Positions 25,066 to 47,541 of a stretch of DNA of 64,000 bases are shown in pieces. The position numbers were made by a program, and so were the translations under genes. The DNA comes from an uncultured delta proteobacterium. Lineage in GTDB: Bacteria > Desulfobacterota > Binatia > UBA9968. Numbering within the stretch: position 1 is the first letter of the stretch; the number at the start of each line of letters is the position of its first letter. The notes beneath the pieces were generated by a model. The model did no database searches. It saw only the letters and a program-made list of their open reading frames with translations, and had not been told where the DNA came from. The DNA lies in the NCBI GenBank assembly GCA_963816145.1, contig CAWFJP010000004.1, positions 192,001 to 256,000 of the forward strand, read 5' to 3'.

Positions 25066-25080
25066 GATTCTGGGTGATAA

Positions 25081-25444: not shown

Positions 25445-26122
25445 TCATTTTGACTGCCAAGTTATCCCTTCGGCTTGCTCGAAAGAGAGCGACGAGATAT
25501 GGCGGGTTCGGTTGAATTTTTCTTCGCCGCTGCCGCCTGCTTTGTCGTCGAAGTGAGTCACCTCCAGCACATACCGACCTGCCCAGGGCATCGGCAAAGT
25601 AACCCGGCCCTGTTCGTTTGTGGTGAGAGGTTTTTCCCATTTCGATGGGCCGATAATCGTGAGTTCGGCTTTCGGAAGCGGCGATCCGAGAAAAATCAGC
25701 ACAAAGGTACTGCCGTTGGCTTCTGCGGGCACTAACTCCAAGTCGAGGTTCGCACTAGTTTCCGAACGCCCATGCTTGGCGTGATAGATTGTCTTGGTTG
25801 TGCCGCCTTTTTCGTTGTCCTCGCGCGGCGGCACGCTGCTGTCCACAAAGCGCACGTCGCCAATACCCTGGGTGGCAAATTCGAGGTTGTTGTCATTGCG
25901 TTTAACCTGAAGCGGTTGGTTATTCGCGCCGACAGTTACGCGCGGCGCTTTGAATCGATCGAGCAGGCCGCCGGTTTTTTCGCGGATATCGTCGATCCAT
26001 TCGCCGAAATAGGCGCGGGTAGCGCCGTCGCCTTGGCGTTCGAGCCAGAGGAAATGAGCATGAGCGGAAGGAATTAGCGCCAGCGTCGCAAACATCGTGA
26101 AGAGGGAGATCAACTTGGCCAT
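25445..26122 (-). CDS. DUF4198-like periplasmic protein
   Basis: Signal peptide ending AHA|HFLWLE, YFGE, LELVP, TNEQGRVTL, GRYVL; GGAG RBS before ATG 26122. Confidence 0.75.
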   Translation of the reverse strand: MAKLISLFTMFATLALIPSAHAHFLWLERQGDGATRAYFGEWIDDIREKTGGLLDRFKAPRVTVGANNQPLQVKRNDNNLEFATQGIGDVRFVDSSVPPREDNEKGGTTKTIYHAKHGRSETSANLDLELVPAEANGSTFVLIFLGSPLPKAELTIIGPSKWEKPLTTNEQGRVTLPMPWAGRYVLEVTHFDDKAGGSGEEKFNRTRHISSLSFEQAEGITWQSK

Positions 26123-27965
26123 GAGGGTTCTCCTTTGGTTTCTGCCGAGAGAGCCGTTCGTTGATCTTTTTCGAACTGCGCTAGAACGCCGTCGAACCAA
26201 CGCTTGGCCGGTTCGTCGTAATCGACATCGCAATCGACGCGGGGATAGATACGCGCGGCGCCATGCCGTTCCAGGGCGGCGTCGAAATCGCGGCCGCACT
26301 TGCAGAAGTGGTCGTAGGTCGTGTTGCCGAGCGCGAGCACGGAAAATTTGATGCCGCTCAGGTCGAGGCCGTTGCCGTGCACCAATGCTTGCCAGAAAGG
26401 CGTGGCGTCGTCGGGTGGTTCGCCGTCGCCATAGGTGCTGACCACCATCAGCACGCAGTTTGCCTGCTTCAGTAGGTTTGTCTCACAGCGCGCCATGTCG
26501 CACATTTGTGCCGTGATATTGGCGCGCCGAAGCGCTGTTGCGAGCTTTTTCGCGAGCATTTCGGCGTTGCCGGTGACGGTACCGTAAAGAATGAGCACCG
26601 AATCGTTATTGCCCGGTGCCCCGGTCAGTTCGGCGCTGGCATGGTCGTGACCGTTGTGGGAATGGCCATTGTTGCTGAAATTAGAGTTCGTTTCTTCCAT
26701 CGGGATACTCGCGAGCTCCTCTGCTATTTTATTGTTTTGCGGCAGGGTTTGTATGACTGTTGGAGCGGCTTCCACCGGCGCGATTTGATATTCCACGGTG
26801 CTGGCAACTTCGGCATCGCGTTTACGATAGCGGAAGCGCCGCCAGGCCATGGCGAAGCCGGTCCAAACCAGAAAGCAGCCGCCGAGCGAAGCCAGGCCGG
26901 CGACGGTTTGGCCGGCAAAACCGAGAGCTTCACCGGTGTGGAGGCCGCGCACCCAGGTTCTCAGCTTTCGTCCCGGGCTCGCGGCGCCGTAGGGTTCCCA
27001 TTTGACGACTGCGGCGCTGGCGCGATTGAGCACCAGTTGCGATCGCGCGAAGATATGCGGCGCGGTGGGTTCCTGGATCAAAAGTGTGACCGGGCCATCG
27101 CCGCGCGGCGGCAGGCGCATCGTCATCATGATCCAGCCAGGCGCCTGTTGCTCGGCGCGCGCCAGAAAGGCGTCGAAGCTCGCCAGCGGCTTGCGCGAGC
27201 GCGGCTCTGCGCCGGCGCCGCGCCGCTGCTGGGTTTGCGCCATCGGACCGGAGGGCTGGGCTCGCGGCGGCGGCTCGCTGCCGGTCAAGGTAAAAAGCAG
27301 ATCGTTGGCCCATGGGTACGACATCACCGCGGCGGTGAGCGTAAGCACCACCAGCACACTGGACGACCAGAAACCGATGACGTTATGCCAGTTCCAATCG
27401 CGGGCTTTACCGCGCAGGTGAAGATTGAAAAGGAGGCTGGACTTCAATCCCCGCCAGTGCCAGCTGCGCGGCCACCAGAGATAGACTCCGGTGACGGCAA
27501 GCCAGAAAAAGGCCAGATTGCAGGCGCCGGTGATGGCTCGGGCGGTGGCTCGGCCTTCGCCTTCCGTGCCGAGCCAGCGGTGCCACTCGATGACCTCGTG
27601 AAACCAGTCGTGCAGTTTTGATTCCTCGCCGAGAACCGCACCGGTATAAGGGTTGACATAATTCGCGCCTTCGCGGCCGAAGTCGACGGCCACGGCGGCG
27701 GTCGGTTCGTTGCGCAAGACAATCGCCGGTGACTTGGGCCTTGGGGTTTTGTTCGCGCACGTTGGCTTATCAGTTCATCCAGACTCAGATCGTTGCGCGC
27801 CGGCGCCCGGCGCGCGACCTGTCGCACGTCGCGTTCGGCGTATTCGACCAGCTGGCGCTCGTACATCACCACAAAGCCGGTGGCGGACATGATGAAAATG
27901 ACCACGCCGCCGATGGTGCCGGCGAGCAAATGGGACCAGAAAATAATTTTGTGCATTAACTTCAT
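26110..27965 (-). CDS. PepSY-associated TM protein fused to flavodoxin; frameshifted near 27720-27820
   Basis: N-terminal IFWSHLLAG in one frame; YVNPYTG, WHRWL, WHNVIG, LHTGE in another; then LYGTVTGNAE...STYGDGEPP...LGNTTYDHFC flavodoxin. Confidence 0.85.
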
Positions 27966-27980
27966 GGGTCTTCTCACGTC

Positions 27981-29221: not shown

Positions 29222-31381
29222 TTAGAACTTGAAATTGGCGCTGCCGAGGAACGTCCGTCCGGCAGCCGGGATCGCTTTCGAACCGGAGATGCTATCGAAA
29301 TAAAGCTGGTTGGACAGATTGAGCGCGTTAACCCGGAACTGAATGTTCTTGGTGATCTGGTACGCGACGGTCGAATCCCATCGAATGTAACCCGGGATGC
29401 GATTGGTGTTGGCGTTATTGGAGTATCGGCTGTCGACATAGGAGGGGCCACCGCCGATCTGCCATTTTTCCAGAAAGTCGTAGGTGATCCAAACGTTGGC
29501 GCTGTTCTTCGGCGCGTTTTGGATTTCGTTACCAACAATACTCGGAATGGTATTATCTTTAAGTATCTCGGTATCGAGAAAGGTGTAACCGCTGAAAATG
29601 TTCAAGCCCGGAAGCAGGCGGCCGGTCACCCCGATCTCGAAGCCCTGTGAACGCTGTTTACCGGTCACGACGTTGGGCAGAAGGGGATCGATCGGATTCG
29701 GCGTGCGCGCGTTCTTTTTGTCGATGCGAAAGATTGCGCCCTGGACACTCAAGGCGCCGCCGAAGAAATTCAGTTTGGCGCCGACTTCGAAGATCTCGTT
29801 TTGTTCCGGCGGAGTATTGTTGGTGGCTGGGCTGAGGGCGACGCCTTCGGCGGATGGATTGAACGAGGTGCCGTAAGAAAAATAATAACTTTGCCAATCC
29901 GTCGGGTGAAATACCAAGCCGCCGCGATAACTCCACTCTCTGTCGATTTGTTTTCGCTTGTCGTTAAGGAAATAGTCCTTGACTTGGCTGTCGAAGTAGT
30001 CCCAACGGACACCGCCGACGAGATCGAAATACTCGTTTAGCTTGATTTGATCAGCCGCGTAAATGCCAAAGCTGAACGCGTTGGTATCGGATTCCGCAGC
30101 GCGGGTTCTCGGGTTCGGAGGCTGGTTGTTGTTGGGATTGTTGATGGTTGTGTTGGGACCGGCGCTGGCCCAGCGTATCAAGTCGAAAGTCTCGCGCGCC
30201 AGTTCAATCCCGGTGGTGACCGTGTGTTTGAAACTGTAGGTATAAAACTTCGCCGTGAGGTCCGATTGGTTGCTCAAGATGCTTTCCTGGGTGTCGCGCT
30301 GCGGGCGGCTTCGGTTCAGTGTATTCGGTCTAGGTATTACTGGTATGATGGGATTGGTAACTGCTGATTCTCGGTCAACGTAGCTGTAGCGCAGCGTATT
30401 GCGCAAGTTGAATATGTCGTTGAAGGTGTGATCGAGTTTCAGTGTGCCGATATTCACCGTCGTTTCTTCACGATCATCGTGAGTTAAGCCATACCAGTTG
30501 CTGCGGTCGGTGCGTAACGGCTTGCCGTCCTTGTATGGGAATCCGTAATCAGGAATATTGTCTTCATGTTGCAGCAGGTAGCTCAACGTCACCTGCGTCG
30601 GTGTGCCCAGGCCGAAGGCAATCGACGGCGCTAGACCCAGCCGCTTGACTTCGATCTTGTCCCGCTCCACGACGTCGTCCCTATGTGCCATGAGGTTGAT
30701 ACGGAAGGCGGCGTTGGGAAGCAGTTGAGGGATCGGTTGATTGACATCGATGGTGCCGCGCAGATACATGTTGCCGCCGGCGGTAAAAATGCCGTCGTAG
30801 CTCGGGTCGAGGCGGGGAGTCTTGCTGACCTGATTGATCACACCGCCGGTGGAGCCGCGCCCGAAATAGGTCGAAGACGGTCCCTTCAACACCTCGACGG
30901 AGTCGAAATTGAATGAATCGCGAAAATAAGAGCCGGCGTCGCGCACGCCATCGATATACATATCGTTGCGCGCATTGAACCCGCGTAGCGTAAAAACATC
31001 GCCCTGGGCGCCGCCGCCTTCGCCGGCTGTGGCGGTGATGCCAGGCACGTTGCGCAGGGCATCGCGCAATGTCGTACCGGCCTGTTCCTCGAGGAGTTTT
31101 TCCGGCACGATGGTAATCGATTGCGGGATGTCGATCAGCGGCTCGGGAAACTTCGAGAGCGAGGACTGCGGCACAATGTAGGGACTGCTTTGGTCTTGCA
31201 CCACCACCGGTGGCATGGCGATCGGTTCGTCTGGTTTGGGCTCGGCGGCCGCCGCATGGCTCGCCAGCGCAAAGCTGAAGGCCACTGCCTTGCCCACGCC
31301 TTCGCCGGCGGCGAGACAGATTTTTTGAAATGCCGTCTTATTGGATTTTCTTTCGATCGCGCGTTTTTGTTGTCGAGTCAT
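29222..31381 (-). CDS. TonB-dependent siderophore receptor (Fiu/PiuA-like)
   Basis: DIPQSITIV, LRNVPGIT, EVLKGPSS...GRGSTGGVINQVSK plug; C-terminal Phe; adjacent to piuC. Confidence 0.93.
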   Translation of the reverse strand: MTRQQKRAIERKSNKTAFQKICLAAGEGVGKAVAFSFALASHAAAAEPKPDEPIAMPPVVVQDQSSPYIVPQSSLSKFPEPLIDIPQSITIVPEKLLEEQAGTTLRDALRNVPGITATAGEGGGAQGDVFTLRGFNARNDMYIDGVRDAGSYFRDSFNFDSVEVLKGPSSTYFGRGSTGGVINQVSKTPRLDPSYDGIFTAGGNMYLRGTIDVNQPIPQLLPNAAFRINLMAHRDDVVERDKIEVKRLGLAPSIAFGLGTPTQVTLSYLLQHEDNIPDYGFPYKDGKPLRTDRSNWYGLTHDDREETTVNIGTLKLDHTFNDIFNLRNTLRYSYVDRESAVTNPIIPVIPRPNTLNRSRPQRDTQESILSNQSDLTAKFYTYSFKHTVTTGIELARETFDLIRWASAGPNTTINNPNNNQPPNPRTRAAESDTNAFSFGIYAADQIKLNEYFDLVGGVRWDYFDSQVKDYFLNDKRKQIDREWSYRGGLVFHPTDWQSYYFSYGTSFNPSAEGVALSPATNNTPPEQNEIFEVGAKLNFFGGALSVQGAIFRIDKKNARTPNPIDPLLPNVVTGKQRSQGFEIGVTGRLLPGLNIFSGYTFLDTEILKDNTIPSIVGNEIQNAPKNSANVWITYDFLEKWQIGGGPSYVDSRYSNNANTNRIPGYIRWDSTVAYQITKNIQFRVNALNLSNQLYFDSISGSKAIPAAGRTFLGSANFKF

Positions 31382-31412
31382 CCTATCCTCCGTGAGTTCA
31401 GATTGCTTGATC

Positions 31413-31456
31413 GGCTGGCTTTCCCTGTCCGGAGAACTGGATGGATGGCTGGCTGG
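31413..31456 (-). promoter_or_regulatory. HemP/HmuP-responsive-element-like CCAG repeats
   Basis: CCAGCCAGCCATCCATCCAG...AGCCAGCC between the hemP stop and the receptor RBS. Confidence 0.55.
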
Positions 31457-31465
31457 ATCGTAAGG

Positions 31466-31657
31466 TTACTTGGTCAATATTAGCTTGCCGTTTTTGGTGA
31501 TGCGCAGGTTGTACTCCTCCTTTTGATGCACGATGACGATCTCGTTGTTGCCTTGAAATAGGTGGGCGCTTTCAACGCGCGGTTTTTTCGCTGCCGGAGC
31601 GAGGATCGACGGCTCGGCTGTCGGTTTGGCGGCGCAATGGACAAGTATTTCTGCCAC
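31466..31657 (-). CDS. hemP: Hemin uptake regulator HemP/HmuP
   Basis: SAHLFQG..EIVIVH..EEYNLRITKNGKLILTK signature. Confidence 0.92.
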   Translation of the reverse strand: MAEILVHCAAKPTAEPSILAPAAKKPRVESAHLFQGNNEIVIVHQKEEYNLRITKNGKLILTK

Positions 31658-31665
31658 GGCGTTTC

Positions 31666-32496
31666 CTAGTGCAACTCAAATTTGACCGGTAATAAGACCC
31701 ATACCGAAACCGCTTCTTTGCCCCGGCGTGCCGGTTCGAAGAGCCATTTTTTGACCGCGTCCATAGCGGCGATATCGAGATCGCGAAAACCAGCGGATTG
31801 CTCGACCAAAACTTCGCTCACGCGGCCGGTTTCCAGCACCCGAACCTTTAAAGTCGTCACGCCTTGAGCGCCGGCTCTTTTGGCGGAGTCGGGATAACGC
31901 GGCTTAACTTGGTAGCCGCCGAGGGGTCTGGCCAGACCGGAGAGCGCTTCTCCTGAGCCTGTGCCGCCGCCGGTGCCGTCGCCCTTGGCGCCCCGGCCGA
32001 GCCCCGACGCTCCGGTACCGCCACCGCCGCCGGCGACTCCGCTGCCGGCGACCACGCCGGCATCGCCCTTGGCGAAGAGATTGCCGGCGCCGGCGGCGCT
32101 GCCCTCCGCTTGAGTGGCTTGCGTGCCGGTGTTCCAGCCGGCTTTGGCCGCGCCGGCGTTATCCGGCAATGCCGCCAGCTGCTGCGGCTCTGCGACCGGT
32201 TTTTCTTTGCTGTCTTCTTTGGTGTTGCCGGTCGGCGGCAATGGACTGGTTTCAAAAACCGGCTTGGAAAGCAATTTGGGCGCGGTGAGATTTTGCGGTT
32301 TGGGTTTCGGCACCGGTGGCGGCGGTGCGACCTCAACTTTTTGCGGCTGCTCGACCCGCGGCAGCTCGATCAATTCCACCGGCATATTGACGGGCTTGAG
32401 CGGTTTGGCGTGCATCACCAGCGCAGCCACGGGAATCAGGCTCAAATGAATTAACGACGAGGCGGTAAACGACGAGATCAGCCCGTGCTCATTCAT
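31666..32496 (-). CDS. tonB: Energy transducer TonB
   Basis: SSLIH anchor, Pro- and Gly-rich linker, KPRYP...QG...WLFEPA C-terminal domain. Confidence 0.92.
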   Translation of the reverse strand: MNEHGLISSFTASSLIHLSLIPVAALVMHAKPLKPVNMPVELIELPRVEQPQKVEVAPPPPVPKPKPQNLTAPKLLSKPVFETSPLPPTGNTKEDSKEKPVAEPQQLAALPDNAGAAKAGWNTGTQATQAEGSAAGAGNLFAKGDAGVVAGSGVAGGGGGTGASGLGRGAKGDGTGGGTGSGEALSGLARPLGGYQVKPRYPDSAKRAGAQGVTTLKVRVLETGRVSEVLVEQSAGFRDLDIAAMDAVKKWLFEPARRGKEAVSVWVLLPVKFELH

Positions 32497-32906
32497 TTTC
32501 TTTGCTCCTTCGGTTTGACCGCGATCGCCATCTTGGCGACGTTGGCGCCGCGGGCGATATCCATGACTTCGACGACGCGGCCATGCTCGACGCCGTCGTC
32601 GGCGTTGATGACAACCAACATCTCGGAGTTTTTCACCAGCTGCTGGCGCAGCGCATCGCCCAGAGCGGTCTTGTCGATCGCCTTTTGGTTAAGAAACAAC
32701 CGGCCGTCTTTGTCGATGGTTACCGCCGCGCTCTCGGCCGGCGCCTGCTGACCGGCAGCGGCTTTCGGCAGATTGACCGGCATGCCTTTGAACTGGGTCA
32801 TCGACAACGTCGAGATCATAAAAAAGACCAGGAGAAAGAAAATCGTGTCGATCATCGGGATGATCTCGATGCGCGCCTTTTTAATGCTGCGGCGTTGTAT
32901 GCGCAT
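32493..32906 (-). CDS. exbD: Biopolymer transporter ExbD
   Basis: IEIIPMIDTIFFLLVFFM, VNLPKA, VINAD. Confidence 0.92.
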   Translation of the reverse strand: MRIQRRSIKKARIEIIPMIDTIFFLLVFFMISTLSMTQFKGMPVNLPKAAAGQQAPAESAAVTIDKDGRLFLNQKAIDKTALGDALRQQLVKNSEMLVVINADDGVEHGRVVEVMDIARGANVAKMAIAVKPKEQRK

Positions 32907-33514
32907 CAGTGTTTCCCCATGCGCTCATGAAGCAGCAATTCGAGCGAGGAACTGAAGTGCTCCATTCGGTCCATTTCGCGCTCGACCTTCGCCGTGAAGT
33001 AGTTGTAGGAAACCAAGGTGAGAATCGCGATCAGCAAACCGGTGGCGGTGGCGATCAGCGCTTCGGCAACGCCGCCGGTGACCGCATGGGGCTGGCCCAT
33101 GCCGACCTCGGACATGACATCAAAGGAACCGATCATGCCGACCACCGTGCCGAGCAGTCCGAGCAATGGGGCGAGGGTGACGATCGTGTCGAGAACCCCC
33201 AGGCGGCTTTTGAGAATCGGAATTTCGGCCTGCGCCGCCGCTTCCATTGCTTTGGCCGGGGCCGGATTGCGGTGCGCGATGCCGGCAGCGAGGACCCGTG
33301 CAATGGGCTGGATCGACGTCTTGCCTAACTGCAACGCCTGGTCGAATTCGCCCTTGTCGACAAAAGCTAGGATTTGATGCAACGCATCCTTCGATTTTAG
33401 TTTGGTCCAATACAATAAGCGTTCGATTGTCAGGGCGACAGAGATTAGCGAACAAGCGAGGAGCGGAATCATGACGATCCCGCCTTTAACGATGATCGAA
33501 ACAAATGCCGACAT
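32906..33514 (-). CDS. exbB: MotA/TolQ/ExbB proton channel
   Basis: GGIVMIPL, APLLGLLGTVVGMI, GVAEALIATATGL; start taken at ATG 33514. Confidence 0.92.
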   Translation of the reverse strand: MSAFVSIIVKGGIVMIPLLACSLISVALTIERLLYWTKLKSKDALHQILAFVDKGEFDQALQLGKTSIQPIARVLAAGIAHRNPAPAKAMEAAAQAEIPILKSRLGVLDTIVTLAPLLGLLGTVVGMIGSFDVMSEVGMGQPHAVTGGVAEALIATATGLLIAILTLVSYNYFTAKVEREMDRMEHFSSSLELLLHERMGKH

Positions 33515-33516
33515 GA

Positions 33517-33729
33517 CTATTGGACCAATCCTTTCTTGACTTGCTGATGATTGTTCTGCTCGCTGATCTCGGCGTCCTCCGCCACGCTTTGCATGGCGAG
33601 CCCGAGGTCGCGCAGATCGCCTCTCGAGATATGCAGAACGATGTTGCCGTAATGAAAGTGGGCGGTGTCTTGACTGCAATCGCAAAGCGAGACCGACCAC
33701 CCTCCTCCTCGGGATTTGATGCCGTACAT
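33517..33729 (-). CDS. Small hypothetical protein (70 aa) with CDC and HFH motifs, first gene of the tonB operon
   Basis: GGAGG RBS then ATG 33729; MYGIKSRGGGWSVSLCDCSQDTAHFHYGNIVLHI...; stop lies 2 nt before exbB. Confidence 0.7.
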   Translation of the reverse strand: MYGIKSRGGGWSVSLCDCSQDTAHFHYGNIVLHISRGDLRDLGLAMQSVAEDAEISEQNNHQQVKKGLVQ

Positions 33730-33741
33730 TTTGACCTCCGC

Positions 33742-33817
33742 AAAAATCAAAAAGCCCGACGCTCTGCAACATTCGCTGCGAAGCGCCGGGCTCTGGATTC
33801 AAGATCTCTGGCCGCTG
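33742..33817 (-). ncRNA. Conserved leader/attenuator motif, copy B
   Basis: CAGCGGCCAGAGATCTTGAATCCAGAGCCCGG-stem-TCGGGCTTTTTGATTTTT directly before an RBS. Confidence 0.75.
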
Positions 33818-33840
33818 AGTGTGTTTGTATATTCAAAGCA

Positions 33841-33883
33841 TAAGTATTTGTCAATACTTATAGCCGATATTTGTATAGACTAA
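33841..33883 (-). promoter_or_regulatory. Promoter/operator region of the tonB operon
   Basis: Minus-strand TTGACA (33849-33854) inside the palindrome TAAGTATT-TGTC-AATACTTA. TTTGTATAGACTAA (33870-33883) resembles the box upstream of the DtxR-family gene. Confidence 0.5.
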
Positions 33884-33963
33884 TATTAATTTATAACCTG
33901 CTAAAACTTTGTGTAAATTAACGATGTCTGTGTTCTCAATATCTCTCTTTGTTGTGCCATTAA

Positions 33964-34134
33964 TCACCGAGGATTTTGGTTATGCCGGTGCTCAGGTGAA
34001 ATAGGAATAATGATCTTTCGTTTACACCGGCGACACTTGATTTCGACCCCACCCGGCACTAGACGGGCCAGCAAATTGCCACAGTGACAGCGTAAGAGTT
34101 TAACCTCTGTGCCGTCGACGACTTTATCTTTCAT
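33964..34134 (-). CDS. Com-like zinc-ribbon microprotein 2 (56 aa, not in the ORF track)
   Basis: Translated by hand: MKDKVVDGTEVKLLRCHCGNLLARLVPGGVEIKCRRCKRKIIIPISPEHRHNQNPR; paralogue of 36216..36407. Confidence 0.8.
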   Translation of the reverse strand: MKDKVVDGTEVKLLRCHCGNLLARLVPGGVEIKCRRCKRKIIIPISPEHRHNQNPR

Positions 34135-34196
34135 TGGCGGTTTGACTCAGTTGACAGATAGCGCTTCGACAAGACATGGCATTTATTTTCTTCTCC

Positions 34197-34262
34197 AAAA
34201 AAAGAGCCCGGAATCGCATGTAACGCGATGCCGGGCTCTGGGTTCTCGACCTCTGGCCGCTC
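34197..34262 (-). ncRNA. Conserved leader/attenuator motif, copy C
   Basis: GAGCGGCCAGAGGTCGAGAACCCAGAGCCCGG-stem-CCGGGCTCTTTTTTT then a GGAG RBS. Confidence 0.75.
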
Positions 34263-34386
34263 GTCCGTTTACCGTTATGAAACTGTTAGTGTTGGTCGAC
34301 TCTAACTGTTCTCTAAAAAATTCGGGCCACAAAACTCCACTGCTCCAATTCGATTTGGCTATCGCGAGCCGAGATCGACATGGCCA

Positions 34387-35238
34387 TTACCAAAACCAGC
34401 TCGATTCTGACGAGGGACCGAACAGCGCGCAAACGAAATTCTCAAGCTCTAGATTGAACTTGATGATGACCGGATCCGAGCCGTGGGTCAGACCGAAACC
34501 GGCGCCAATATTGTACTCGATACCATGCGGCAGCTCGCCCCGGATGACCGGAAAGATGTAATGTTGCTGCTCCGCTCTTGGGTCGGTGTCGTTGATGTTG
34601 CCGATACCGCCGAAAAACTCGACACCCGGCGAAATCGACCGCATCCAGCGATAATAAATTCCCGAGGCGTAGCCGAATTCGAATCCTTTGTTCTTGTCTG
34701 GGCCGACCAATACTTTTTCAAAGATGGGATTAACCATCAAGGAAAGGCTGCCGAAGTCTTTTTGAATAATCGGGCGCAATTCCAGTTCTAGTTTCTGATC
34801 GTCGAATTGCGGTACACGGTTGTATCCCAATTCAATGTACCAACCGAGATCGATGGGCAGCTGCCCTTGATCGAACAGGCTGCCGCGCACTCTGAACTTT
34901 GAGCCGGCATATTGCAGGTCACGACCGTTGGGCTTGGCGATATTCACGTACGCCGCCGCTTCGATGCGATCGGAAAGCCCGTAGGTTGCCTCCAAAGCGG
35001 TGCGCCACATCGATTGGCTGGGTAAGGTGCCGCCTGAAGTTCCCTTGTCGCCCTGGGTGAAGCCATTGGCGACAACGCTATTTAGCCACTCAAGTTCAAG
35101 AACACCGCGCCCGAGCGTGCGGTACGGATAAACTTCAAATTCCCAGGGATCGACCTGCGCGGCGCCACAACCGGGGCGTAACAAATCTGCCAGGACGATG
35201 AGGCACGCTAAGGTTATCGATCGTAAATAAGTGTTCAT
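34387..35238 (-). CDS. Putative outer-membrane beta-barrel protein
   Basis: Signal peptide, then alternating beta-strand patterns (EFEVY, LEATYG, LELRPIIQKDF, EYNIGAGFGLT). Confidence 0.65.
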   Translation of the reverse strand: MNTYLRSITLACLIVLADLLRPGCGAAQVDPWEFEVYPYRTLGRGVLELEWLNSVVANGFTQGDKGTSGGTLPSQSMWRTALEATYGLSDRIEAAAYVNIAKPNGRDLQYAGSKFRVRGSLFDQGQLPIDLGWYIELGYNRVPQFDDQKLELELRPIIQKDFGSLSLMVNPIFEKVLVGPDKNKGFEFGYASGIYYRWMRSISPGVEFFGGIGNINDTDPRAEQQHYIFPVIRGELPHGIEYNIGAGFGLTHGSDPVIIKFNLELENFVCALFGPSSESSWFW

Positions 35239-35744
35239 TGTGAATGCTCCTTAGTTGTATTGGAACTTTGTTGGGATCGTTGGCTTGCTAACTCCGATTC
35301 GATCCACTGTAGTAACAGCAGCAGATCTGTTTGGTTTAGCGCTGCTTGAGGGTGCAGTATGCGGTAACTCCACGGCGGCATGTTTTCTTGACGCAAGGTG
35401 CGATCGATCCACTGAAGTTTGCGTAACTTTGTCGTCAGGTAATAGGAACCCCATTCGGAGAAGTTCAGCTGTTTGCGCCCCAACCCGACGTCCCGTTCCA
35501 ACCACCAAGAGAATGGCGCGACGTAGCCGTACCATGGCCAGCGGGTTTCATTGGAGTGGCAGTCGTAACAGGAGCGTATGAGAATAGCCGCAATTTTCGG
35601 TGGCGCTGCAGCGTCGTCACGTGTAGGAGGATCTTCATGGCGAATCCCGCGCGATAGTCCGACCATGGTAAGTCCGGCGACTGCGAGGAGCGCCGCGACG
35701 TGCTGCTTGTTTATTTTCACCGGCCGTCGATCTCCTATACCCAT
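35235..35744 (-). CDS. Haem-binding domain (c-type) protein
   Basis: SCYDCHSNETRWPWY...LNFSEW...MPP..Y...HP. Confidence 0.85.
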   Translation of the reverse strand: MGIGDRRPVKINKQHVAALLAVAGLTMVGLSRGIRHEDPPTRDDAAAPPKIAAILIRSCYDCHSNETRWPWYGYVAPFSWWLERDVGLGRKQLNFSEWGSYYLTTKLRKLQWIDRTLRQENMPPWSYRILHPQAALNQTDLLLLLQWIESELASQRSQQSSNTTKEHSQ

Positions 35745-35750
35745 GAGTTT

Positions 35751-36089
35751 TTATTTGGCCGTGATCGTTCCTTCGGGAACATCCTGGTGAAAATCGTCGT
35801 AAATGTCATAACTGCCGGGCCGCAAAGCCGGTACGAGTACGATCACCGACTCACCGGGGCCAACGACCTTCTCACGGTTGAGCTTGAAGCTTTCGAATTC
35901 GATGGCTTCTTTGCTGCTGTTGGTGATTTTAATCTTAAACGGTTGATTCGCCGGGACGGTGATCGTTTGCGGAATAAAGCGGCGATTCTCGAAGCGCAAC
36001 TCGACCACCGCGTCGTCGGCTTGGGCGCGCCTTGCTAACGCGATGGCAAAGAGGAAAAGCAGGGTAATTGTAATCCTCGAATGCTTCAT
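35751..36089 (-). CDS. Cupredoxin-domain periplasmic protein (EfeO/FtrB-like)
   Basis: Signal peptide; FIPQTITVPAN, EFES..LNREKVV.PG, GSYDIYDDFH. Confidence 0.85.
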   Translation of the reverse strand: MKHSRITITLLFLFAIALARRAQADDAVVELRFENRRFIPQTITVPANQPFKIKITNSSKEAIEFESFKLNREKVVGPGESVIVLVPALRPGSYDIYDDFHQDVPEGTITAK

Positions 36090-36110
36090 CTAGTTCTCTC
36101 CTTGGCTATT

Positions 36111-36185
36111 AAAAAGCAAAAAGCCCGGTTACCGCCGTTGTCTGTGCGGAACGCCGGGCTCTGGGTTCAAGACCTCTGGCCGCTG
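36111..36185 (-). ncRNA. Conserved leader/attenuator motif, copy D
   Basis: CAGCGGCCAGAGGTCTTGAACCCAGAGCCCGG-stem-CCGGGCTTTTTGCTTTTT, 30 nt after the Com-like gene 1 stop. Confidence 0.75.
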
Positions 36186-36215
36186 AATTAGATTTATCAA
36201 CGTTCTCAATGATGG

Positions 36216-36407
36216 TTACATATCGATCCTGACAGTGCCCTTGGTGGCGAAAGGTACGACCACTTGGCGCTTACAGCGGCGGCATTTGAGTTCGACGCCG
36301 TCGGCGACCACCCGGGCTAACAAGCTGCCACAGCTGCATCGCAGCGAGTTGTCTGGCTTTGTTGCCGCCGCTATCTCGCGGTTCTTTTGTTGTAGTCGTG
36401 AATCCAA
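36216..36407 (-). CDS. Com-like zinc-ribbon microprotein 1 (63 aa)
   Basis: LRCSCGSLLARVVADGVELKCRRCKRQVVVP; probable TTG start 1 nt after the FTR1 stop. Confidence 0.8.
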   Translation of the reverse strand: MDSRLQQKNREIAAATKPDNSLRCSCGSLLARVVADGVELKCRRCKRQVVVPFATKGTVRIDM

Positions 36408-36408
36408 T

Positions 36409-38391
36409 TTACTTCGCTTTCTTGCGCTGACGGGCCAGCCAAAAGGACGTAGCGACGAAGGCAAAAAGCATCAATCCTTGAGCCGCCAGGGTTTCAACGG
36501 TCGGATGGATGCCGAGCAAGGGGATCGCGTGCGGCACGCTCGTCGGTGTGGTGGAGATCCACTGGGCGGCTTGTAATTCTTTGACGCCGTTGCCGGCGAA
36601 GATAAACGCCATGATATAGAGCAGCGTTCCAGTGGCGCTCAAGAAATATTTGATCGGAAGTTTGAGCCCGAGCTTTAAAATCGCAAAGGTCGCGACCCCC
36701 AATAACCCGAGCCCGAGCGCCAGGCCCCAAATAATCGAGCCGTGACTATCCTCATTTTGCATCCACAGCGCTTGATAAAACAGCACCAGTTCGAAGGCCT
36801 CGCGATAGACGGCGAAAAACGAGATGCCGATAAGTCCGAAGATGCGCTGGGTCGATATTCCCGATTTTACTTTCTGTTCGATGAACTCATGCCAGCGTTT
36901 GACTTCCGAGCGGGTGTGCAGCCAGTAGCCGACATAGAAAAGCGCCACGGCCGCGAAGACGGATATGAATCCTTCCATGCTTTCGCGGTGGCGACCGCTG
37001 AGCGTGAGCACGGTTTGCGTCGCTACCCAGGTCAATCCGCCGCAGAAGAGCGCGAGAATCCAACCGAGATGAATGTAGCGGATCGCTTCGGTTGCGCCCA
37101 TGACGCGCAACATGCCGATGATGCTGGCCAGGATCAGTGCCGCTTCGAGTCCTTCGCGAAAGATGATCAAGGCTGAATTCGCGAAGGCATAATAGCCCGA
37201 GTAGCCGTCGTCGCGCGCCATTGCCTGGGTGGCGCGATCGAGTTGCACTTCGATTTCTACATGCTGTTTTTGAATTTCTTCCGCCGGCGCGCCTTGCTTG
37301 ATGCTGTTGCGCAGCTGGGTAAATTGCGCTTCCAGACCGCGTCCCAAGCTCGCATCTTTGGCGACTAGTGTTGGTTCGGCAAGTTCATAGCCGTCAAGAT
37401 ACGCTTCAACGGCTTTTTGATAGGCCTGATCTTTTTCCCCTTTGGCATAAAGCGCGACGGCTTCGCGCAGAAGTCCCTTGGCAACTGAAAGGGGATCGGA
37501 CAGCGAGGCTTCCAACATGCCGCGGCGCAGGTAGGCAAGCGCTGCCAGCGCCTGAGACTCGTCTTTGGTCTGTTGTTGGAGCCGGTCCAACAGCACTTCG
37601 TCGGCGCTGGTCGCCAGGGTTGCAACCGTTTGCAATTCGCCGGGCAAGCCTTTCGCCTTGACCATCTGCGCGCCGGTTTTGGCCGCTTCGTCGGTGAATC
37701 GCAGAGAAAATACGTAGAATGCGACCTGCCAGCGTTGCTCTTCGCTAAGGGCGGCAAACGATGCCATGGCCGTGCCCTCGATGCCGAAGCTCGCGGTGTT
37801 AAATACTTTGAACGGCGACAGGCCGCCGATGCGCTCGGGATCGGTGAAGTTGGCCGGCAGCGGCGTTTTGGGTTTCATGCTTTCGCGGCCTGGGCCGTCG
37901 CCTTTGCCGGTGGCGCCATGGCATTGCGCGCAATTGTCGTCGTAGATTTTCTTGCCGCTCGCCATGGACGGCAAGCGGCGCGGGTAGGGGACGATATTGT
38001 AGGCCGCCAGCAGTTTTTCTTTGGTTGCCTTGGCAGTTTCGGCGACCGCTTTGGGATCGGCTTTGTCCGTCACCTGCTGCGCCAGGGATTTTACCAAGGC
38101 TTCGACGCCGGCTTTATCGCCTTTGTCAGCGGCTTTGAGCTGGGCGAATAATTCCAAACCGCGCTTGGCGAATTCTTGCATTTCGCCGTACTCGTCCGGG
38201 TTCAAGACTTTGCCGTCTTTGACGGCATTTTTGTAATCGCTGCCCAGGTAGTCGAGCAGCGCGACCAGCTTCTTGGCCTGTTCTTGCGCCAATACCGGAG
38301 CCGCGGCGAAGAGTAGTAGCCATATCGCTAAGAATGAGGCGGTGATCTTGCTACTCGTGAAAGCGCGTCGTTGGGAAATCCCGTTGGTCAT
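36409..38391 (-). CDS. Cytochrome c / FTR1-family iron permease
   Basis: LLDYLGSDY, CAQCH haem motif, two RExxE motifs (REGLE, REAFE), TM C-terminus. Confidence 0.92.
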   Translation of the reverse strand: MTNGISQRRAFTSSKITASFLAIWLLLFAAAPVLAQEQAKKLVALLDYLGSDYKNAVKDGKVLNPDEYGEMQEFAKRGLELFAQLKAADKGDKAGVEALVKSLAQQVTDKADPKAVAETAKATKEKLLAAYNIVPYPRRLPSMASGKKIYDDNCAQCHGATGKGDGPGRESMKPKTPLPANFTDPERIGGLSPFKVFNTASFGIEGTAMASFAALSEEQRWQVAFYVFSLRFTDEAAKTGAQMVKAKGLPGELQTVATLATSADEVLLDRLQQQTKDESQALAALAYLRRGMLEASLSDPLSVAKGLLREAVALYAKGEKDQAYQKAVEAYLDGYELAEPTLVAKDASLGRGLEAQFTQLRNSIKQGAPAEEIQKQHVEIEVQLDRATQAMARDDGYSGYYAFANSALIIFREGLEAALILASIIGMLRVMGATEAIRYIHLGWILALFCGGLTWVATQTVLTLSGRHRESMEGFISVFAAVALFYVGYWLHTRSEVKRWHEFIEQKVKSGISTQRIFGLIGISFFAVYREAFELVLFYQALWMQNEDSHGSIIWGLALGLGLLGVATFAILKLGLKLPIKYFLSATGTLLYIMAFIFAGNGVKELQAAQWISTTPTSVPHAIPLLGIHPTVETLAAQGLMLFAFVATSFWLARQRKKAK

Positions 38392-38394
38392 TGG

Positions 38395-39162
38395 CTAGCT
38401 TCCTTGAGTCGATAGTAGAAAACGTTTTCTCAGCCAGGCGCTGATGCCGTCCATCATCAAGACGATCACCAGAACTAGTAGCAGCACGGTGGCTAGCCGA
38501 CGATAATCGAGATTCTGCAGATAGATTTGAATCACCAAACCGAGACCGCCGGCGCCGACAAATCCGAGAACCGACGAGGCGCGGATGTTGTATTCGAGCA
38601 TGAACAGCACCTGGGCGAGGATCGCATTGGCGGTTTCCGGGATAATCACAAAGCGCACCAGTTGCAGCTTCGATGCACCGGTGCTCTGCACCGCTTCGAT
38701 GATTTCCGGATCGGTGCCTTCGAACAGGTCGGCGTAGATTTTCGCCAGGTAGCCGACCGTATAGGCGGCAATACCGAAGGTGCCGGCCAGCGGTCCGAGG
38801 CCGACCAGAATGACGAAGACGATCGCCCACAGCAGCACCGGAATGGTGCGTATGCCAGCGGCGATGAATCTGGCCAAGCTCGAGAGCCAATCTGAAAAAA
38901 GTCGGCGCGTGCCGAGCACGCTCAAAGGCAGCGAAGCGATGAAACCCAAGAGCGTTCCGGCAAAGGACATTTCGACGGTTTCCCATAGCGCGGCGCCGGC
39001 GGTGGGCAGGATACTCATGTCGGGCGGCACCATTTCGCCGCCGAGAATCCTCAGGTTGCGAAAGCCGCGCGCTAAACGCTCGCCATCGAAGAGCCCTAAA
39101 TGGGCCAGGGTCGCAAGCAGGAACAAACCGACGGTGAGCGGCAAAAAGAATTTCGGCATCAC
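38395..39162 (-). CDS. phnE: Phosphonate/phosphite-type ABC permease
   Basis: RTIPVLLWA, GLGPLAG, LEYNIRASSVLGFVGAGGLG. Confidence 0.85.
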   Translation of the reverse strand: MMPKFFLPLTVGLFLLATLAHLGLFDGERLARGFRNLRILGGEMVPPDMSILPTAGAALWETVEMSFAGTLLGFIASLPLSVLGTRRLFSDWLSSLARFIAAGIRTIPVLLWAIVFVILVGLGPLAGTFGIAAYTVGYLAKIYADLFEGTDPEIIEAVQSTGASKLQLVRFVIIPETANAILAQVLFMLEYNIRASSVLGFVGAGGLGLVIQIYLQNLDYRRLATVLLLVLVIVLMMDGISAWLRKRFLLSTQGS

Positions 39163-39890
39163 GCGGTTGCCTCAGCCGGCTCGGTTTCAAGATACTCGCT
39201 GCCGATGTAGCCCTTGCCGATCGCGCCGTCTTTCATGGCGAGCACTTCTTCGCCGAACTTCCGCGCCAGACCGAGGCGGTGCATGCTCATGATGAATGTG
39301 ATGTTTTCTGTCTCGGCAGCGGCGCGGATACGGCCGAGAATCTCGTAGGCCAAAGTGAGATCGAGATCCGAGGCGAACTCGTCGGCGATGACGATGCGCG
39401 GCCGCTGCAATAGCGTGCGCGCGATGGCGACCCGTTGACGCTCGCCGCCGCTCAGCTGGAATACCCGATTGTTGCTCTTGTGGTCGATACCCATCATGGC
39501 GAGCGCCGCATGGGCGGCGTCGATCTCCGCGCGCGGAAATATGCCGAATAGAGTTTGGGCATCGCCAAGCCGGCCGAGCGCGCCCATCAGCACGTTGTCG
39601 AGGGCGGAGAGATTGCGCACCAGACCCAATTGTTGCGGAATGTAACCAATCAGCGAGCTCAAATTTCGCCGGCTGCCGCCTTCCAGGGGTTGGCCGAACA
39701 CGGCAATTTTCCCGCGGCTTGGCGGCAATATTCCCGCCATGACACGCAGCAATGTGGTCTTGCCGGTTCCCGAAGGACCCATGATCACCGTGTGCTTGCC
39801 GGCGGGAATCGACAGCGAGACATTGCGCAGGACGGGCTCGTGGCGCGGATAGGAAAACCAAACCTGGTCTGCGTGCAATGCCGTAACCAT
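39159..39890 (-). CDS. phnC: Phosphonate-type ABC ATPase
   Basis: GPSGTGKTT, NVLMGALGR, LSGGERQRVAIAR, IADE. Confidence 0.82.
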   Translation of the reverse strand: MVTALHADQVWFSYPRHEPVLRNVSLSIPAGKHTVIMGPSGTGKTTLLRVMAGILPPSRGKIAVFGQPLEGGSRRNLSSLIGYIPQQLGLVRNLSALDNVLMGALGRLGDAQTLFGIFPRAEIDAAHAALAMMGIDHKSNNRVFQLSGGERQRVAIARTLLQRPRIVIADEFASDLDLTLAYEILGRIRAAAETENITFIMSMHRLGLARKFGEEVLAMKDGAIGKGYIGSEYLETEPAEATA

Positions 39891-39904
39891 ATATGCGCTG
39901 TCGC

Positions 39905-40849
39905 CTACAATCGCTCGGTGAACTTCAAGTTGGCGAGCTTTAAATATTTCGTTAGCCCGGCCAGATGCTCCTGCGCCGTGGTCGGCTTGAAACCGACGAA
40001 AATACTCGAAATAAACGTGCGCATGAGATCGCGATGTTCCGGTGCGCCGAGCTTGATCACGCTCTGGATCGTCCGGGAGCGCAGAGGTTCTTTGAACTCG
40101 CGGCTGAGCACGACGGCGTGGGAGGGGATCGGCCCTTGATCCTCGATGGAGCGTGTGCCGGCGAGGACTTCGTTATAGAGCTTCTCGGGCACGTCGCCGG
40201 CGATGATTGTGGTATCGACTTGGCCCTGTTTGAGCGCCTGCCAGCACTGGCCATAACCGCCGCCGAACAGCACTTCCTTAAAGAAGGATTTAGGGTCGGC
40301 TTCCTTGCCTTCGCCGGGTTGGAGCAGGTTCAGCTCAACCATCCGGCCCATGGGCGCGACGAATCCGGAAGTGGAAATTGGGCTGGGAAAGCACGCCGAC
40401 TTGCCTTTCAGCGATGCCAAATCTTTGTAAGGTGAGTCGGGATTGACCACCCAGTAGGAATAATAATACGGAGCGTCGACTTTTTCTTTGCCGTGGAGTA
40501 CTTGGCGCACCTCGGCCAACGCTACCTCGGCGCCGCCAAGGCGGACTGCCAACTGAGCCGGCCAGGCTGACATGAAGGCGACCTGCGCATGGCCAAAGCG
40601 CAGCGATTCCACCACCGCGGCGAAGCTGGTTGGCACATAGAGCTCCACTTTGGTTTTGCCGCCGAGGCTTTGTTCGAGAAATTTTTGCAGTGGCTTGGCT
40701 TTGTTGAGCATCTCATCGCTGGCCACTGTCGGTTGGATCGCGATGACGAGTTTTCCTTGAGCACGTGCCGGTTCGGAGAAAGCTATCAACAGCCAAAACA
40801 ATGCCGAAAATGTTCCCCGGATGATTCCTAGATTATTGGCGTTTAACAT
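39905..40849 (-). CDS. phnD: Phosphate/phosphite/phosphonate-type substrate-binding protein
   Basis: AVVESLRFG, YYSYWVV, STSGFVAP, GPIPSH; in an operon with phnC and phnE. Confidence 0.8.
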   Translation of the reverse strand: MLNANNLGIIRGTFSALFWLLIAFSEPARAQGKLVIAIQPTVASDEMLNKAKPLQKFLEQSLGGKTKVELYVPTSFAAVVESLRFGHAQVAFMSAWPAQLAVRLGGAEVALAEVRQVLHGKEKVDAPYYYSYWVVNPDSPYKDLASLKGKSACFPSPISTSGFVAPMGRMVELNLLQPGEGKEADPKSFFKEVLFGGGYGQCWQALKQGQVDTTIIAGDVPEKLYNEVLAGTRSIEDQGPIPSHAVVLSREFKEPLRSRTIQSVIKLGAPEHRDLMRTFISSIFVGFKPTTAQEHLAGLTKYLKLANLKFTERL

Positions 40850-40910
40850 CAATGAAGGCTCCCTTGATCTCTTGTCGCAACTTGATTATTAAGGTGGCAG
40901 GCAAGATTTA

Positions 40911-40973
40911 GTTTAGACGTAAAACAAATTCATGCTTCGCCATCCAAAATACTTATTCTTCGTATAGTCGAAG
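40911..40973. promoter_or_regulatory. Candidate DtxR-family operator boxes in the divergent promoter
   Basis: CTTCG-TATAGT-CGAAG palindrome (40958-40973) plus weaker CTTCG-CCATC-CAAAA and GTTT-AGACGTA-AAAC. Confidence 0.45.
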
Positions 40974-40993
40974 CTAGAAAGTTTGTCAAATCT

Positions 40994-41659
40994 ATGGAAG
41001 AAATTAAAGTCACCCATGCGTTAGAAGATTATCTCAAGGCTATTTATGTACTTATGGAAGACGGGCAGCCGGTTATAGCCGCCCGGATGGCTGCCGAGGC
41101 CGGGGTTTCGGCATCGACGATCTTCGCCACGGTTCGGCGGTTAGAAAAAGATGGCTACGTGACGATCAATCGGCGCAAAGAAATTCATTTGACCAGTGAG
41201 GGTAAGAAGATTGCGGAACGAACGATTCGGCGCCATTTCCTGACCGAGCGGTTTCTGACCGATCTGTTGGGACTGGATTGGGTCAAGGCGCATCAGGAAG
41301 CGCACCGTCTGGAACATGCGATTTCCCAAGAAGTTGAAGAGCGCTTGGCGAAATTGCTAAATAATCCGCTGACCTGTCCCCACGGCAATCGCATTCCCGG
41401 GGCTGCTACAGGCAACCTGAGCAAGACTACGCCACTCAATGACGCCAACGACGGCCAAACCGTCGAGCTCGATTTCATTACCGAAGGCGGCGAACGCGAC
41501 GTGCGCCTATTAAGTTACTTACAGGAGCATGGTCTGGTCCCGGGGGCGAAGGTGTTGGTCGTCGACGTCGCGCCGTCCCTCGGCATGATGACGCTCAAGG
41601 TCGGCGATGACCAGTTTTCTTTGGGCATCGAGGCGGCTAAAAAAATCCGCGTGCACTAA
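40994..41659 (+). CDS. DtxR/IdeR/MntR-family metal-dependent repressor with FeoA-like C-domain
   Basis: EDYLKAIY, RRHFLTERFL, EAHRLEHAIS, CPHGNRIP. Confidence 0.93.
   Translation: MEEIKVTHALEDYLKAIYVLMEDGQPVIAARMAAEAGVSASTIFATVRRLEKDGYVTINRRKEIHLTSEGKKIAERTIRRHFLTERFLTDLLGLDWVKAHQEAHRLEHAISQEVEERLAKLLNNPLTCPHGNRIPGAATGNLSKTTPLNDANDGQTVELDFITEGGERDVRLLSYLQEHGLVPGAKVLVVDVAPSLGMMTLKVGDDQFSLGIEAAKKIRVH

Positions 41660-45316: not shown

Positions 45317-47541
<2,225 letters not shown>

Follow-up and report, generated by a model that had tools for sequence, protein, structure and literature searches.

The one studied member of the Com family is the Com protein of bacteriophage Mu. The sequence that it binds, 5'-CC(N)2-3GAG-3', lies in a six-residue hairpin loop; the hairpin is short and adjoins a translation-inhibition structure, and binding affects the GA dinucleotide and the first C of the loop (Nowacka et al. 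2019, PMC6483171). The same paper reports that systematic evolution of ligands by exponential enrichment (SELEX) for Com gave a bipartite motif flanking a 3-4-nt variable stem with a C-G closing pair, and that Com is thought to melt the adjoining helix on binding; a preference of Com for RNA duplex was reported in one study cited there (PMC6483171). Here we describe two genes for Com-like proteins (com-like A and com-like B) and four copies of a short RNA element (motifs A to D) in a stretch of 64,000 nucleotides from an uncultured delta proteobacterium of the Binatia (UBA9968; GenBank assembly GCA_963816145.1, contig CAWFJP010000004.1, positions 192,001 to 256,000 of the forward strand). We call this whole stretch the window, and the positions below, collected in Table 1, are counted from its first letter. 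The protein and the element form a conserved, adjacent and co-oriented pair, and we have high confidence that they are paired functionally. We further consider it reasonably probable that the protein is a cellular RNA-binding activator or antiterminator of the Com type that acts on this element, with the sign of the effect included in that judgement.

In antitermination of the ribonucleic antiterminator (RAT) type, a protein such as BglG, SacY or LicT stabilizes an RNA hairpin that overlaps the 5' arm of a terminator, and read-through results. The locus in the window resembles these systems: it, too, has a conserved hairpin, accompanied by internal-loop or flanking bases, that overlaps an intrinsic terminator in its 5' arm. 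However, BglG, SacY and LicT have CAT and PRD domains under the phosphotransferase system, whereas the protein here is a zinc ribbon of 56-63 amino acids (aa) with no known signal input.

A second comparison is with HmuP, HemP and ChuP, small proteins whose genes head clusters for the uptake of iron or haem (PMC9131926), as is the case in our locus. HmuP and ChuP are needed, beyond Fur derepression, for the expression of genes for TonB-dependent receptors, and they probably act via elements in the 5' untranslated region (HPRE) that consist of repeated GCCAGCC-like words and belong to haem and siderophore receptor genes (PMC9131926). These proteins differ from ours in that they form an unrelated family without a Cys4 site, and ChuP binds haem; in the passages of that paper on HPRE, no terminator overlap is described (PMC9131926). 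The HemP family was not among the Pfam matches of com-like A, com-like B or 31 relatives. The GCCAGCC and CCAG words of the Chromobacterium HPRE (PMC9131926) superficially resemble the GGCCAG and CCAGAG boxes of our element, which could be chance or convergence. A third comparison is with com homologues of Pseudomonas, which are not from Mu but cellular or tailocin-linked and lie directly upstream of a cargo gene such as llpA (PMC6240691). Their regulatory role before the genes of lectin-like bacteriocins has been called unexplored (PMC6240691). Unlike the proteins here, they carry PF10122 and precede bacteriocin, lysis or glycosyl hydrolase genes, and in the passages of that paper on them there is no mention of a conserved RNA element, an overlap with a terminator or a link to iron (PMC6240691). 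In the open-access papers of PMC and bioRxiv and in Rfam 15, we found no description of a Com-type protein that is paired with a terminator-overlapping RNA element or that occurs in iron regulons.

Com-like A and B are, by their sequences, clear paralogues, with 21 identities in 33 positions (64% over 33 aa; BLASTP E 8e-17), just as an earlier note on this DNA, made from its letters alone, had held. In the 7.82-Mb, 31-contig assembly they are the sole significant copies; the next matches have E-values of 0.15 and 2.1. The TTG start of com-like B lies one base past the stop codon of an FTR1-type gene, and its open frame reaches 36464. A large protein database holds 29 homologues of 48-98 aa, all of which keep the Cys4 core, and 11 of the 29 have been named 'phage FluMu protein Com' by the Joint Genome Institute (JGI). 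The layout is of the Com type: about 60 aa, four invariant cysteines (C16, C18, C34 and C37) in two N-terminal knuckles, and a variable tail. In a 31-sequence alignment, R15, C16, C18, G19, L21, L22, A23, G29, E31, K33, C34, R35, C37 and K38 are invariant, while the N- and C-terminal tails vary in length and sequence; the invariant core of alignment A2, in which com-like B is included, reads RCxCGxLLA...G.E.KCRxCK. The AlphaFold 2 (AF2) model of the com-like protein has three strands, with a mean predicted local distance difference test (pLDDT) score of 89 for residues 21-40 and low confidence at both ends.

The earlier note had made its reading depend on whether the open reading frame (ORF) of com-like A is conserved. 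A 90%-identical homologue shares its N-terminus, and relatives are encoded by 352 genomic stretches of species-representative genomes. Across 64 distinct com-like core sequences, diversity at codon positions 1, 2 and 3 is 0.18, 0.11 and 0.57, and there are 22,835 synonymous and 8,601 non-synonymous codon differences, a ratio that is inflated because the regular expression used to collect the cores fixes 11 residues. The pattern of substitution indicates that the com-like ORFs are real genes under coding selection. We also found, in a metatranscriptome run, a 210-nt contig identical to 33908..34117 that covers com-like A, together with two other short pieces; two further RNA runs gave no match, and 19 DNA metagenome runs contain most of the window. 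The contig is compatible with transcription of com-like A, a weak hint given that DNA carry-over is possible and that it shows no transcript ends.

Profile comparisons differed on the Com-like pattern that the earlier note saw in these proteins, and the Pfam model of Com gave no significant match. When the family alignment was compared with Mu Com taken from the Mu genome record, hhalign returned a probability of 91.6% and an E-value of 8.3e-7 with 44% identity over 32 columns. The common core is E-I-[KR]-C-x-R-C-K-R, and the alignment contains a one-residue gap because the first knuckle is CxC here and CxxC in Mu Com. PHROG 13819, 'gpCom control of modification', was matched by com-like A (E 4e-4) and com-like B (E 2.4e-4). 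A profile search of solved structures gave zinc-finger matches at chance level (E >= 0.77), and a tblastn comparison of the com-like protein with 50,697 phage records was without a match at E <= 1. The homology to Mu Com therefore appears to be remote, and the com-like proteins read as a distinct cellular branch of remote homologues of Com.

The RNA element is about 35 nt long and consists of GGCCAGNG, a 3-bp covarying hairpin and then CCAGAGCCC. In the window it is read on the minus strand as AGCGGCCAG[A/C]G-G[G/A]UC-NN-GAA[C/U]C-CCAGAGCCCGG. A GC-rich hairpin comes next, and in three of the four copies (B, C and D) a clear U-tract stands behind it. All four copies are covariance-model matches (Table 1); a first model was built from 31 motif copies and a second from the matches of the first. 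On the DNA they appear as a four-member family of direct repeats at 25025-25066, 33777-33818, 34222-34263 and 36145-36186, and a 27-base degenerate pattern, run over the whole 7.8-Mb genome, hits exactly these four sites, all on the reverse strand, with 0 hits for the reversed-pattern control. The genome's two proteins and four motifs all lie inside 12 kb. Com-like B ends about 30 nt before motif D, and com-like A follows motif C and precedes motif B by about 148 nt, so that the geometry is the one that had been claimed for gene B and motif D and for gene A between motifs C and B.

Conservation is highest in the two boxes, GGCC-N-G-N-G and CC-N-G-N-GCCC. The 3-bp hairpin between them covaries, with GC, AU and GU at one pair and UA, CG and UG at the next, and all cells are paired. 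Double-sided changes number 25, where 7.6 would be expected from shuffling; none of 500 shuffles reached that count, and sliding the partner columns left 0 in any register. These alignments were fitted to the covariance model, which favours the modelled hairpin. On this sequence evidence, the element acts as RNA. An alternative hairpin proposed by RNAfold, GGCC-AGN-GGUC, was rejected: double-sided changes are absent from it, and 11 sequences break it, exactly the ones in which the A pairs with U in the covarying helix. A reading of the element as a DNA operator was likewise rejected, since every significant match is on the gene strand, G-U pairs are retained, and the element is placed downstream of the promoter and ahead of the start codon. 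In Rfam 15 the whole window has 0 matches at the gathering score, and a search by E-value on 33700..36300 returned just the unrelated PhotoRC-I (E 0.098, on the other strand).

The element resembles the Mu target in several respects. In both cases the gene lies directly upstream of the RNA target on the same strand, the protein has about 60 aa, a Cys4 zinc ribbon at its N-terminus and a tail that varies, and the target is a short hairpin that is followed at once by the 5' arm of an inhibitory helix. The Mu sequence, as folded here, forms a hairpin AUGC-CUGCGA-GCAU and then, with no spacer, a helix CCCACGG...UUGUGGG; in our element, two CC-N-GAG-like boxes flank the stem and the inhibitory helix starts two or three bases past the hairpin. 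In the window's genus, the hairpin loop is C-NN-GA with a U-A closing pair, and the myxobacterial copies have a C-N3-GA loop with a C-G closing pair and read CC-CUU-GAG. CC..GAG-type boxes and, in most copies, a C-N2-3-GA loop are shared with the Com target (PMC6483171). However, the boxes here are CC-N-GNG, with one spacer base, and there are several targets per genome (four in this one). The setting here is chromosomal iron uptake, with no phage or mom gene among the neighbours, and the inhibitory helix is mostly an intrinsic terminator, whereas in Mu it is a start-codon hairpin.

We next turn to the distribution of the pair. For the window's genus, 24 other genomes were sampled, with a motif pattern that allowed up to 3 mismatches. 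The motif was present in 16 of the 24 and the protein in 15; the protein carriers were all among the motif carriers, and each of the 15 has one motif on the gene's strand, 30-180 nt downstream. These counts include the unpublished genome G005; without it the motif is found in 15 of 23 and the protein in 14 of 23 genomes, and the conclusions are unchanged. One seed row (L017) of alignment A3 and model R1 also comes from G005. In two other families of the order, both protein and motif were absent from all genomes sampled (0 of 16 for each). Two motif-like matches were seen in genomes in which no com-like gene was found: one in G001 (L014), with 3 mismatches and no terminator in a 65%-complete genome, and one in G102 (G102:C16:8278-8302, E 9.3e-4). 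They are probably due to chance or incomplete assembly.

For more distant loci, one genome per species was scanned, which gave 371 candidate stretches, of which 352 encode a relative; the best 80 loci were kept. Their hosts include Myxococcota (Sorangium, Corallococcus and Myxococcus), Binatia, Acidobacteriota, Nitrospirae, Verrucomicrobiia and others. In these best 80 loci the covariance model gave 56 matches at E <= 0.01 in 52 loci, all on the gene's strand, and nearly all at locus positions 3143-3351, where the gene match ends at about 3100-3170. The second model added 5 of the remaining 28 loci, for a total of 57 of 80. At the 46 loci where the distance from the stop codon to the GGCC box could be measured, the median was 56 nt (37 loci at 100 nt or less, 7 at 101-300 nt and 2 beyond).

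Two further samples were taken. In an even sample of 150 genomes of the window's phylum, 4 carried the protein and 2 the motif. When the loci of these 4 were inspected without filters, they differed: a motif lies 25 nt downstream in one and 1.2 kb downstream on the same strand in another; a third has a diverged copy 22 nt downstream (E 0.84), and the fourth has none. In the order around the Myxococcus genome of L100, 15 of 61 genomes carried the protein and 10 the motif. All 10 motif carriers were among the 15 protein carriers, with the motif adjoining the gene, and the motif occurred in 0 of the 46 protein-less genomes. An 11.5-Mb Myxococcus genome and a 6.9-Mb Acidobacteriota genome each contain exactly one motif, beside the com-like gene. 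In other words, the same pairing pattern recurs in separate lineages. The earlier note had taken the com-like proteins for cognate partners of the leader motif and had named co-occurrence, ahead of this analysis, as the point on which to judge that idea. The counts in the genus, at the distant loci and in the Myxococcus-centred sample support it, as do adjacency and co-orientation.

We also analyzed how the element is joined to the genes behind it. In the window, each of the four copies overlaps a strong hairpin by its 3' box (Table 1). The terminator of motif D is followed by the Shine-Dalgarno sequence (SD) and start codon of the cupredoxin gene, and that of motif B directly by GGAGG and the ATG of a 70-aa ORF; SD and start codon lie within about 25 nt behind both U-tracts. 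Behind motif C, the start of com-like A comes about 60 nt further on, without a clear SD. A simple promoter and terminator scan had missed the four motif terminators because its loop limit was 3-8 nt. For the distant loci, we folded 80 nt from the 3' box onward for each of the 56 covariance-model matches. In 32 of the 56, the result was a hairpin that has a U-tract and takes up 5 or more of the 7 nt of AGAGCCC in its 5' arm, and another 13 gave a helix without a U-tract, so that the 3' box lies inside an inhibitory helix in 45 of 56 altogether. In the Myxococcaceae-type loci without a U-tract, GCGCCC pairs with codons just past the AUG and thereby encloses the GGAGGA SD, and at L062, L105 and L117 the SD itself is in the 3' arm of the helix. 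Since one element is joined to two kinds of inhibitory helix via the same 3' box, occupying the element would be expected to switch expression on.

Based on these results, we propose the following mechanism, for which RNA binding and the activating direction are inferred from what is known of Mu Com. In the absence of the protein, the inhibitory helix would form, and transcription would stop or translation would be blocked. Protein bound to the hairpin and boxes would withhold the 3' box from the helix, which would allow read-through or ribosome access. As the com-like gene and the element generally share a transcript, with the gene less than 100 nt ahead, synthesis of the protein would come first, and the downstream genes would open only once it has accumulated. 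The result would be a delay or threshold layer atop DtxR-type repression. In the window, low iron would lead to derepression of the DtxR-type kind, and the upstream operon with com-like B would be made, early transcripts ending at the terminator behind com-like B. Accumulated protein would then open motif D, with the cupredoxin and haem-binding genes; motif C, with com-like A, which would close a positive loop; motif B, with ExbBD-TonB and the receptor, a unit apparently under its own TTGACA-17-TATACA promoter; and motif A, with the ferritin-like gene. Such a cascade with positive feedback would fit the gene order.

Transcription from the promoter-like site before motif B would begin at the 5' edge of the motif. 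It was missed by a consensus scan because that scan needs a T at the end of the -10 hexamer. A perfect 7-6-7 palindrome, TAAGTATTGACAAATACTTA, at 33839..33858 (minus) overlaps the -35 of this site, and it may be an operator of the DtxR-type repressor; a 16-base palindrome search returned this copy and one weak match at 46774, with no others. A similar promoter, TTGACAAAC...TATACG, occurs in the DtxR-divergent intergenic region at 40950..40995 (minus), and TTGACA-type promoters (TTGACAAA) also precede the motif in other loci.

Several observations count against an activator of the Com type acting on this element. On the side of the protein, neither com-like A nor com-like B matched Pfam at E <= 1, the Com model PF10122 (Zn_ribbon_Com) included, or anything in NCBIfam, and just 4 of 31 relatives touched PF10122 weakly, with a best E-value of 0.015, below significance. 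The first knuckle is CxC, unlike the CxxC of Mu Com, in 31 of 31 sequences. Foldseek found no match for the AF2 model in viral and PDB libraries at E <= 0.001, a null that is uninformative because it is expected for a zinc ribbon of 30 residues. On the side of the RNA, the lower helix GGC/GCC, around a symmetric CAGN/CAGA internal loop, is invariant and without covariation support; as it never varies, it is neither supported nor contradicted. The fold stability of the motif alone is unexceptional (z 0.12). A third class of motifs has loops such as UUA or AAUA without the C..GA pattern, so that the flanking boxes, and not the loop, may be the main determinant. The hairpin behind motif A has a poor U-tract (CUUGUCGCUU), and 11 of the 56 distant matches are without clear overlap (2 are terminators that overlap 4 nt, and 9 are unclear). 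With regard to distribution, no motif was detected at 23 of the 80 distant protein loci, including all 7 Sorangium loci, or in 5 of the 15 protein carriers of the Myxococcus-centred sample. Finally, related genomes are not independent, and the co-occurrence counts therefore overstate the statistical weight.

The Sorangium loci in question (L048, L079, L080, L083, L097, L111 and L122) are without the motif within 3 kb, and the covariance model did not find it anywhere in the So ce26 genome. The Sorangium branch of the com-like protein may use a different RNA target.

The opposite sign of the effect deserves consideration, since a Com-like protein that binds the element but represses would fit the same co-occurrence and adjacency data. 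By stabilizing the terminator or the helix at the ribosome-binding site (RBS), or by blocking the ribosome, it would turn the iron genes off. The 3' box lies within the inhibitory helix, and a protein that read this box as duplex would favour the helix; the duplex preference reported for Com in one study (PMC6483171) points in the same direction. However, the hairpins in question already have -28 to -35 kcal/mol, to which a stabilizer would add little, and the sole studied relative melts the adjoining helix and activates (PMC6483171). A conserved hairpin just upstream of a helix is, moreover, the usual anatomy of an antiterminator. We therefore regard repression as unlikely. It is also conceivable, though in our opinion improbable, that the Com-like zinc ribbon is itself the sensor, with the occupancy of the Cys4 site (Zn versus Fe(II)) or its oxidation deciding whether the leader RNA is bound, as in a one-component metalloregulator that acts on RNA. 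If so, it would govern antitermination of iron-uptake operons in at least several hundred species of the Myxococcota, Binatia, Acidobacteriota, Nitrospirota and others.

We also considered the possibility that the element is independent of the protein, as a riboswitch-like leader or the target of some other factor, and that the gene is cargo of the iron regulon, for example a small metal-binding protein. Motif C precedes com-like A, as would be expected of regulated cargo, and the matches in the protein-less G001 and G102 described above could be taken in the same sense. However, at 44 of the 46 measurable loci the gene comes first and the motif follows it within 300 nt, and protein-less genomes contained no solid motif (0 of 46 and 0 of 16), whereas the protein does occur without the motif. 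A 3-bp hairpin and two single-stranded boxes without special stability would also be very small for a ligand pocket, the element has no Rfam match, and the family's one studied member is an RNA-binding regulator. The position of the gene, the lack of a solid motif in protein-less genomes and the small size of the element weigh most heavily, and we regard the cargo explanation as quite improbable. Still more doubtful, and in our estimate very improbable, is the idea that the promoter-motif-terminator units are mainly small RNA decoys that titrate the Com-like protein, or that they stabilize the 3' ends of com-like mRNAs: motif B, with its own promoter-like site and terminator, would yield a transcript of about 70 nt, and in most loci the element directly behind the com-like gene would end its mRNA, but SDs and start codons follow 10-25 nt past the U-tracts, the helices without a U-tract enclose the SD and start codon of the next gene, which suits a leader and not a decoy, and motif A lies far from any com-like gene, before the ferritin-like gene.

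Table 1. Positions of the com-like genes, RNA motifs, overlapping hairpins and neighbouring genes in the window.
Feature	Position	Strand	Remarks
RNA motif A	25033..25067	minus	Covariance model 50.3 bits, E 3.6e-10; leader of ferritin-like gene 24420..24914
RNA motif B	33785..33819	minus	Covariance model 54.0 bits, E 3.7e-11; hairpin GAU-CUUGA-AUC, a compensatory variant
RNA motif C	34230..34264	minus	Covariance model 52.8 bits, E 8e-11; upstream of com-like A
RNA motif D	36153..36187	minus	Covariance model 54.8 bits, E 2.3e-11; GGCCAGAG, hairpin GGU-CUUGA-ACC, then CCAGAGCCC
Com-like gene A	33964..34134	minus	56 aa, ATG start, protein with RCHCGNLLARLVPGGVEIKCRRCKRKIIIP; from ORF list
Com-like gene B	36216..36407	minus	63 aa, TTG start, protein with RCSCGSLLARVVADGVELKCRRCKRQVVVP; from ORF list and sequence
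Predicted intrinsic terminator, motif D	36112..36162	minus	5' arm AGAGCCCGG of motif D, then U-tract; RNAfold -28.1 kcal/mol, z -2.5
Predicted intrinsic terminator, motif C	34196..34239	minus	Overlaps 3' box; RNAfold -34.8 kcal/mol, z -4.85, 0 of 200 shuffles as stable
Predicted intrinsic terminator, motif B	33740..33794	minus	Overlaps 3' box; RNAfold -34.5 kcal/mol, z -4.1, 0 of 200 shuffles as stable
Strong hairpin, motif A	25003..25042	minus	Overlaps 3' box; RNAfold -35.2 kcal/mol, z -3.0
Promoter-like site before motif B	33826..33854	minus	TTGACA, 17 nt, TATACA within palindrome TAAGTATTGACAAATACTTA; found by eye
Upstream frame	36409..41659	both	DtxR-type repressor gene 40994..41659 (plus), divergent from minus-strand operon that ends in com-like B
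Genes behind motif D	34387..36089	minus	Cupredoxin-like 35751..36089, haem-binding 35235..35744, 283-aa protein without family 34387..35238
Genes behind motif B	32493..33729	minus	70-aa ORF 33517..33729, ExbB, ExbD; Pfam MotA_ExbB, ExbD
TonB and TonB-dependent receptor	29222..32496	minus	Behind ExbBD; Pfam TonB_C, Plug, TonB_dep_Rec

The surroundings of the pair in the window are rich in genes of iron metabolism. The operon divergent from the DtxR-type gene encodes, in order, a substrate-binding protein, an ATP-binding cassette (ABC) ATPase, a permease, an FTR1-cytochrome c fusion (36409..38391) and com-like B, and Pfam matches in this upstream frame are Fe_dep_repr_C, FeoA, Phosphonate-bd, ABC_tran, BPD_transp_1, FTR1 and Cytochrom_C. 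The fusion, on the minus strand and adjoining com-like B, is a 660-aa protein with an N-terminal cytochrome c domain and an FTR1-type iron permease; a homologue of its gene follows the com-like gene at locus L065. Behind motif D, Pfam identified Cupredoxin_1 (E 3.8e-27) and Haem_bd (E 1.6e-36). Past the receptor, the minus-strand order continues with a PKHD hydroxylase, DUF3016, PepSY-TM/flavodoxin, DUF4198, motif A, the ferritin-like gene and a catalase-peroxidase, and the gene behind motif A matches Pfam Ferritin (E 3.1e-25). Among the 20 neighbours that were scanned with Pfam, all are genes of iron homeostasis or transport and none is phage-like, in agreement with the earlier note, which had seen no prophage genes nearby. 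At 26110..27977 (minus), PepSY_TM is split over overlapping ORFs, with profile positions 1-72 in 27444..27977 and 88-295, together with flavodoxin, in 26110..27717. The split could reflect a frameshift, an assembly error or two genes.

The first genes behind the motif include small families of their own. The 70-aa ORF (MYGIKS...HFHYGN..LHI...) begins right past the terminator of motif B and before ExbB; it has no Pfam or NCBIfam family, and in a protein atlas it falls into unnamed clusters, mostly of Binatota and Acidobacteriota. For about 15 of the 56 matches, in several phyla, a relative of this ORF comes first behind the motif, and the 70-aa protein may be a further component of the com-like/RNA system. 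A 93-aa family (MLDPWIERA...) at L045, L053, L055 and L058 and an 87-aa family (...RSLRWGPGIGWY) at L058, L068 and L076 also occur as first genes behind the motif, both without a Pfam or NCBIfam match.

Com has so far been regarded as a peculiarity of phages, with one target. If the proposed activator or antiterminator role is true, then Com-type zinc ribbons would be widespread cellular RNA-binding regulators, each with a recognizable cognate RNA; the breadth of this notion is based on the 352 genomic stretches in species-representative genomes of several phyla. Like a riboswitch, the element is joined either to a terminator or to a helix that sequesters the RBS, and at 56 aa plus 35 nt the pair would be a very small and portable protein-RNA switch for synthetic biology. 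As the module is present in myxobacteria that can be cultivated and are non-pathogenic (Corallococcus and Myxococcus), the hypothesis is directly testable. For abundant bacteria of soil and wetland, the system would represent a post-transcriptional layer of iron homeostasis beyond repression of the DtxR and Fur type.

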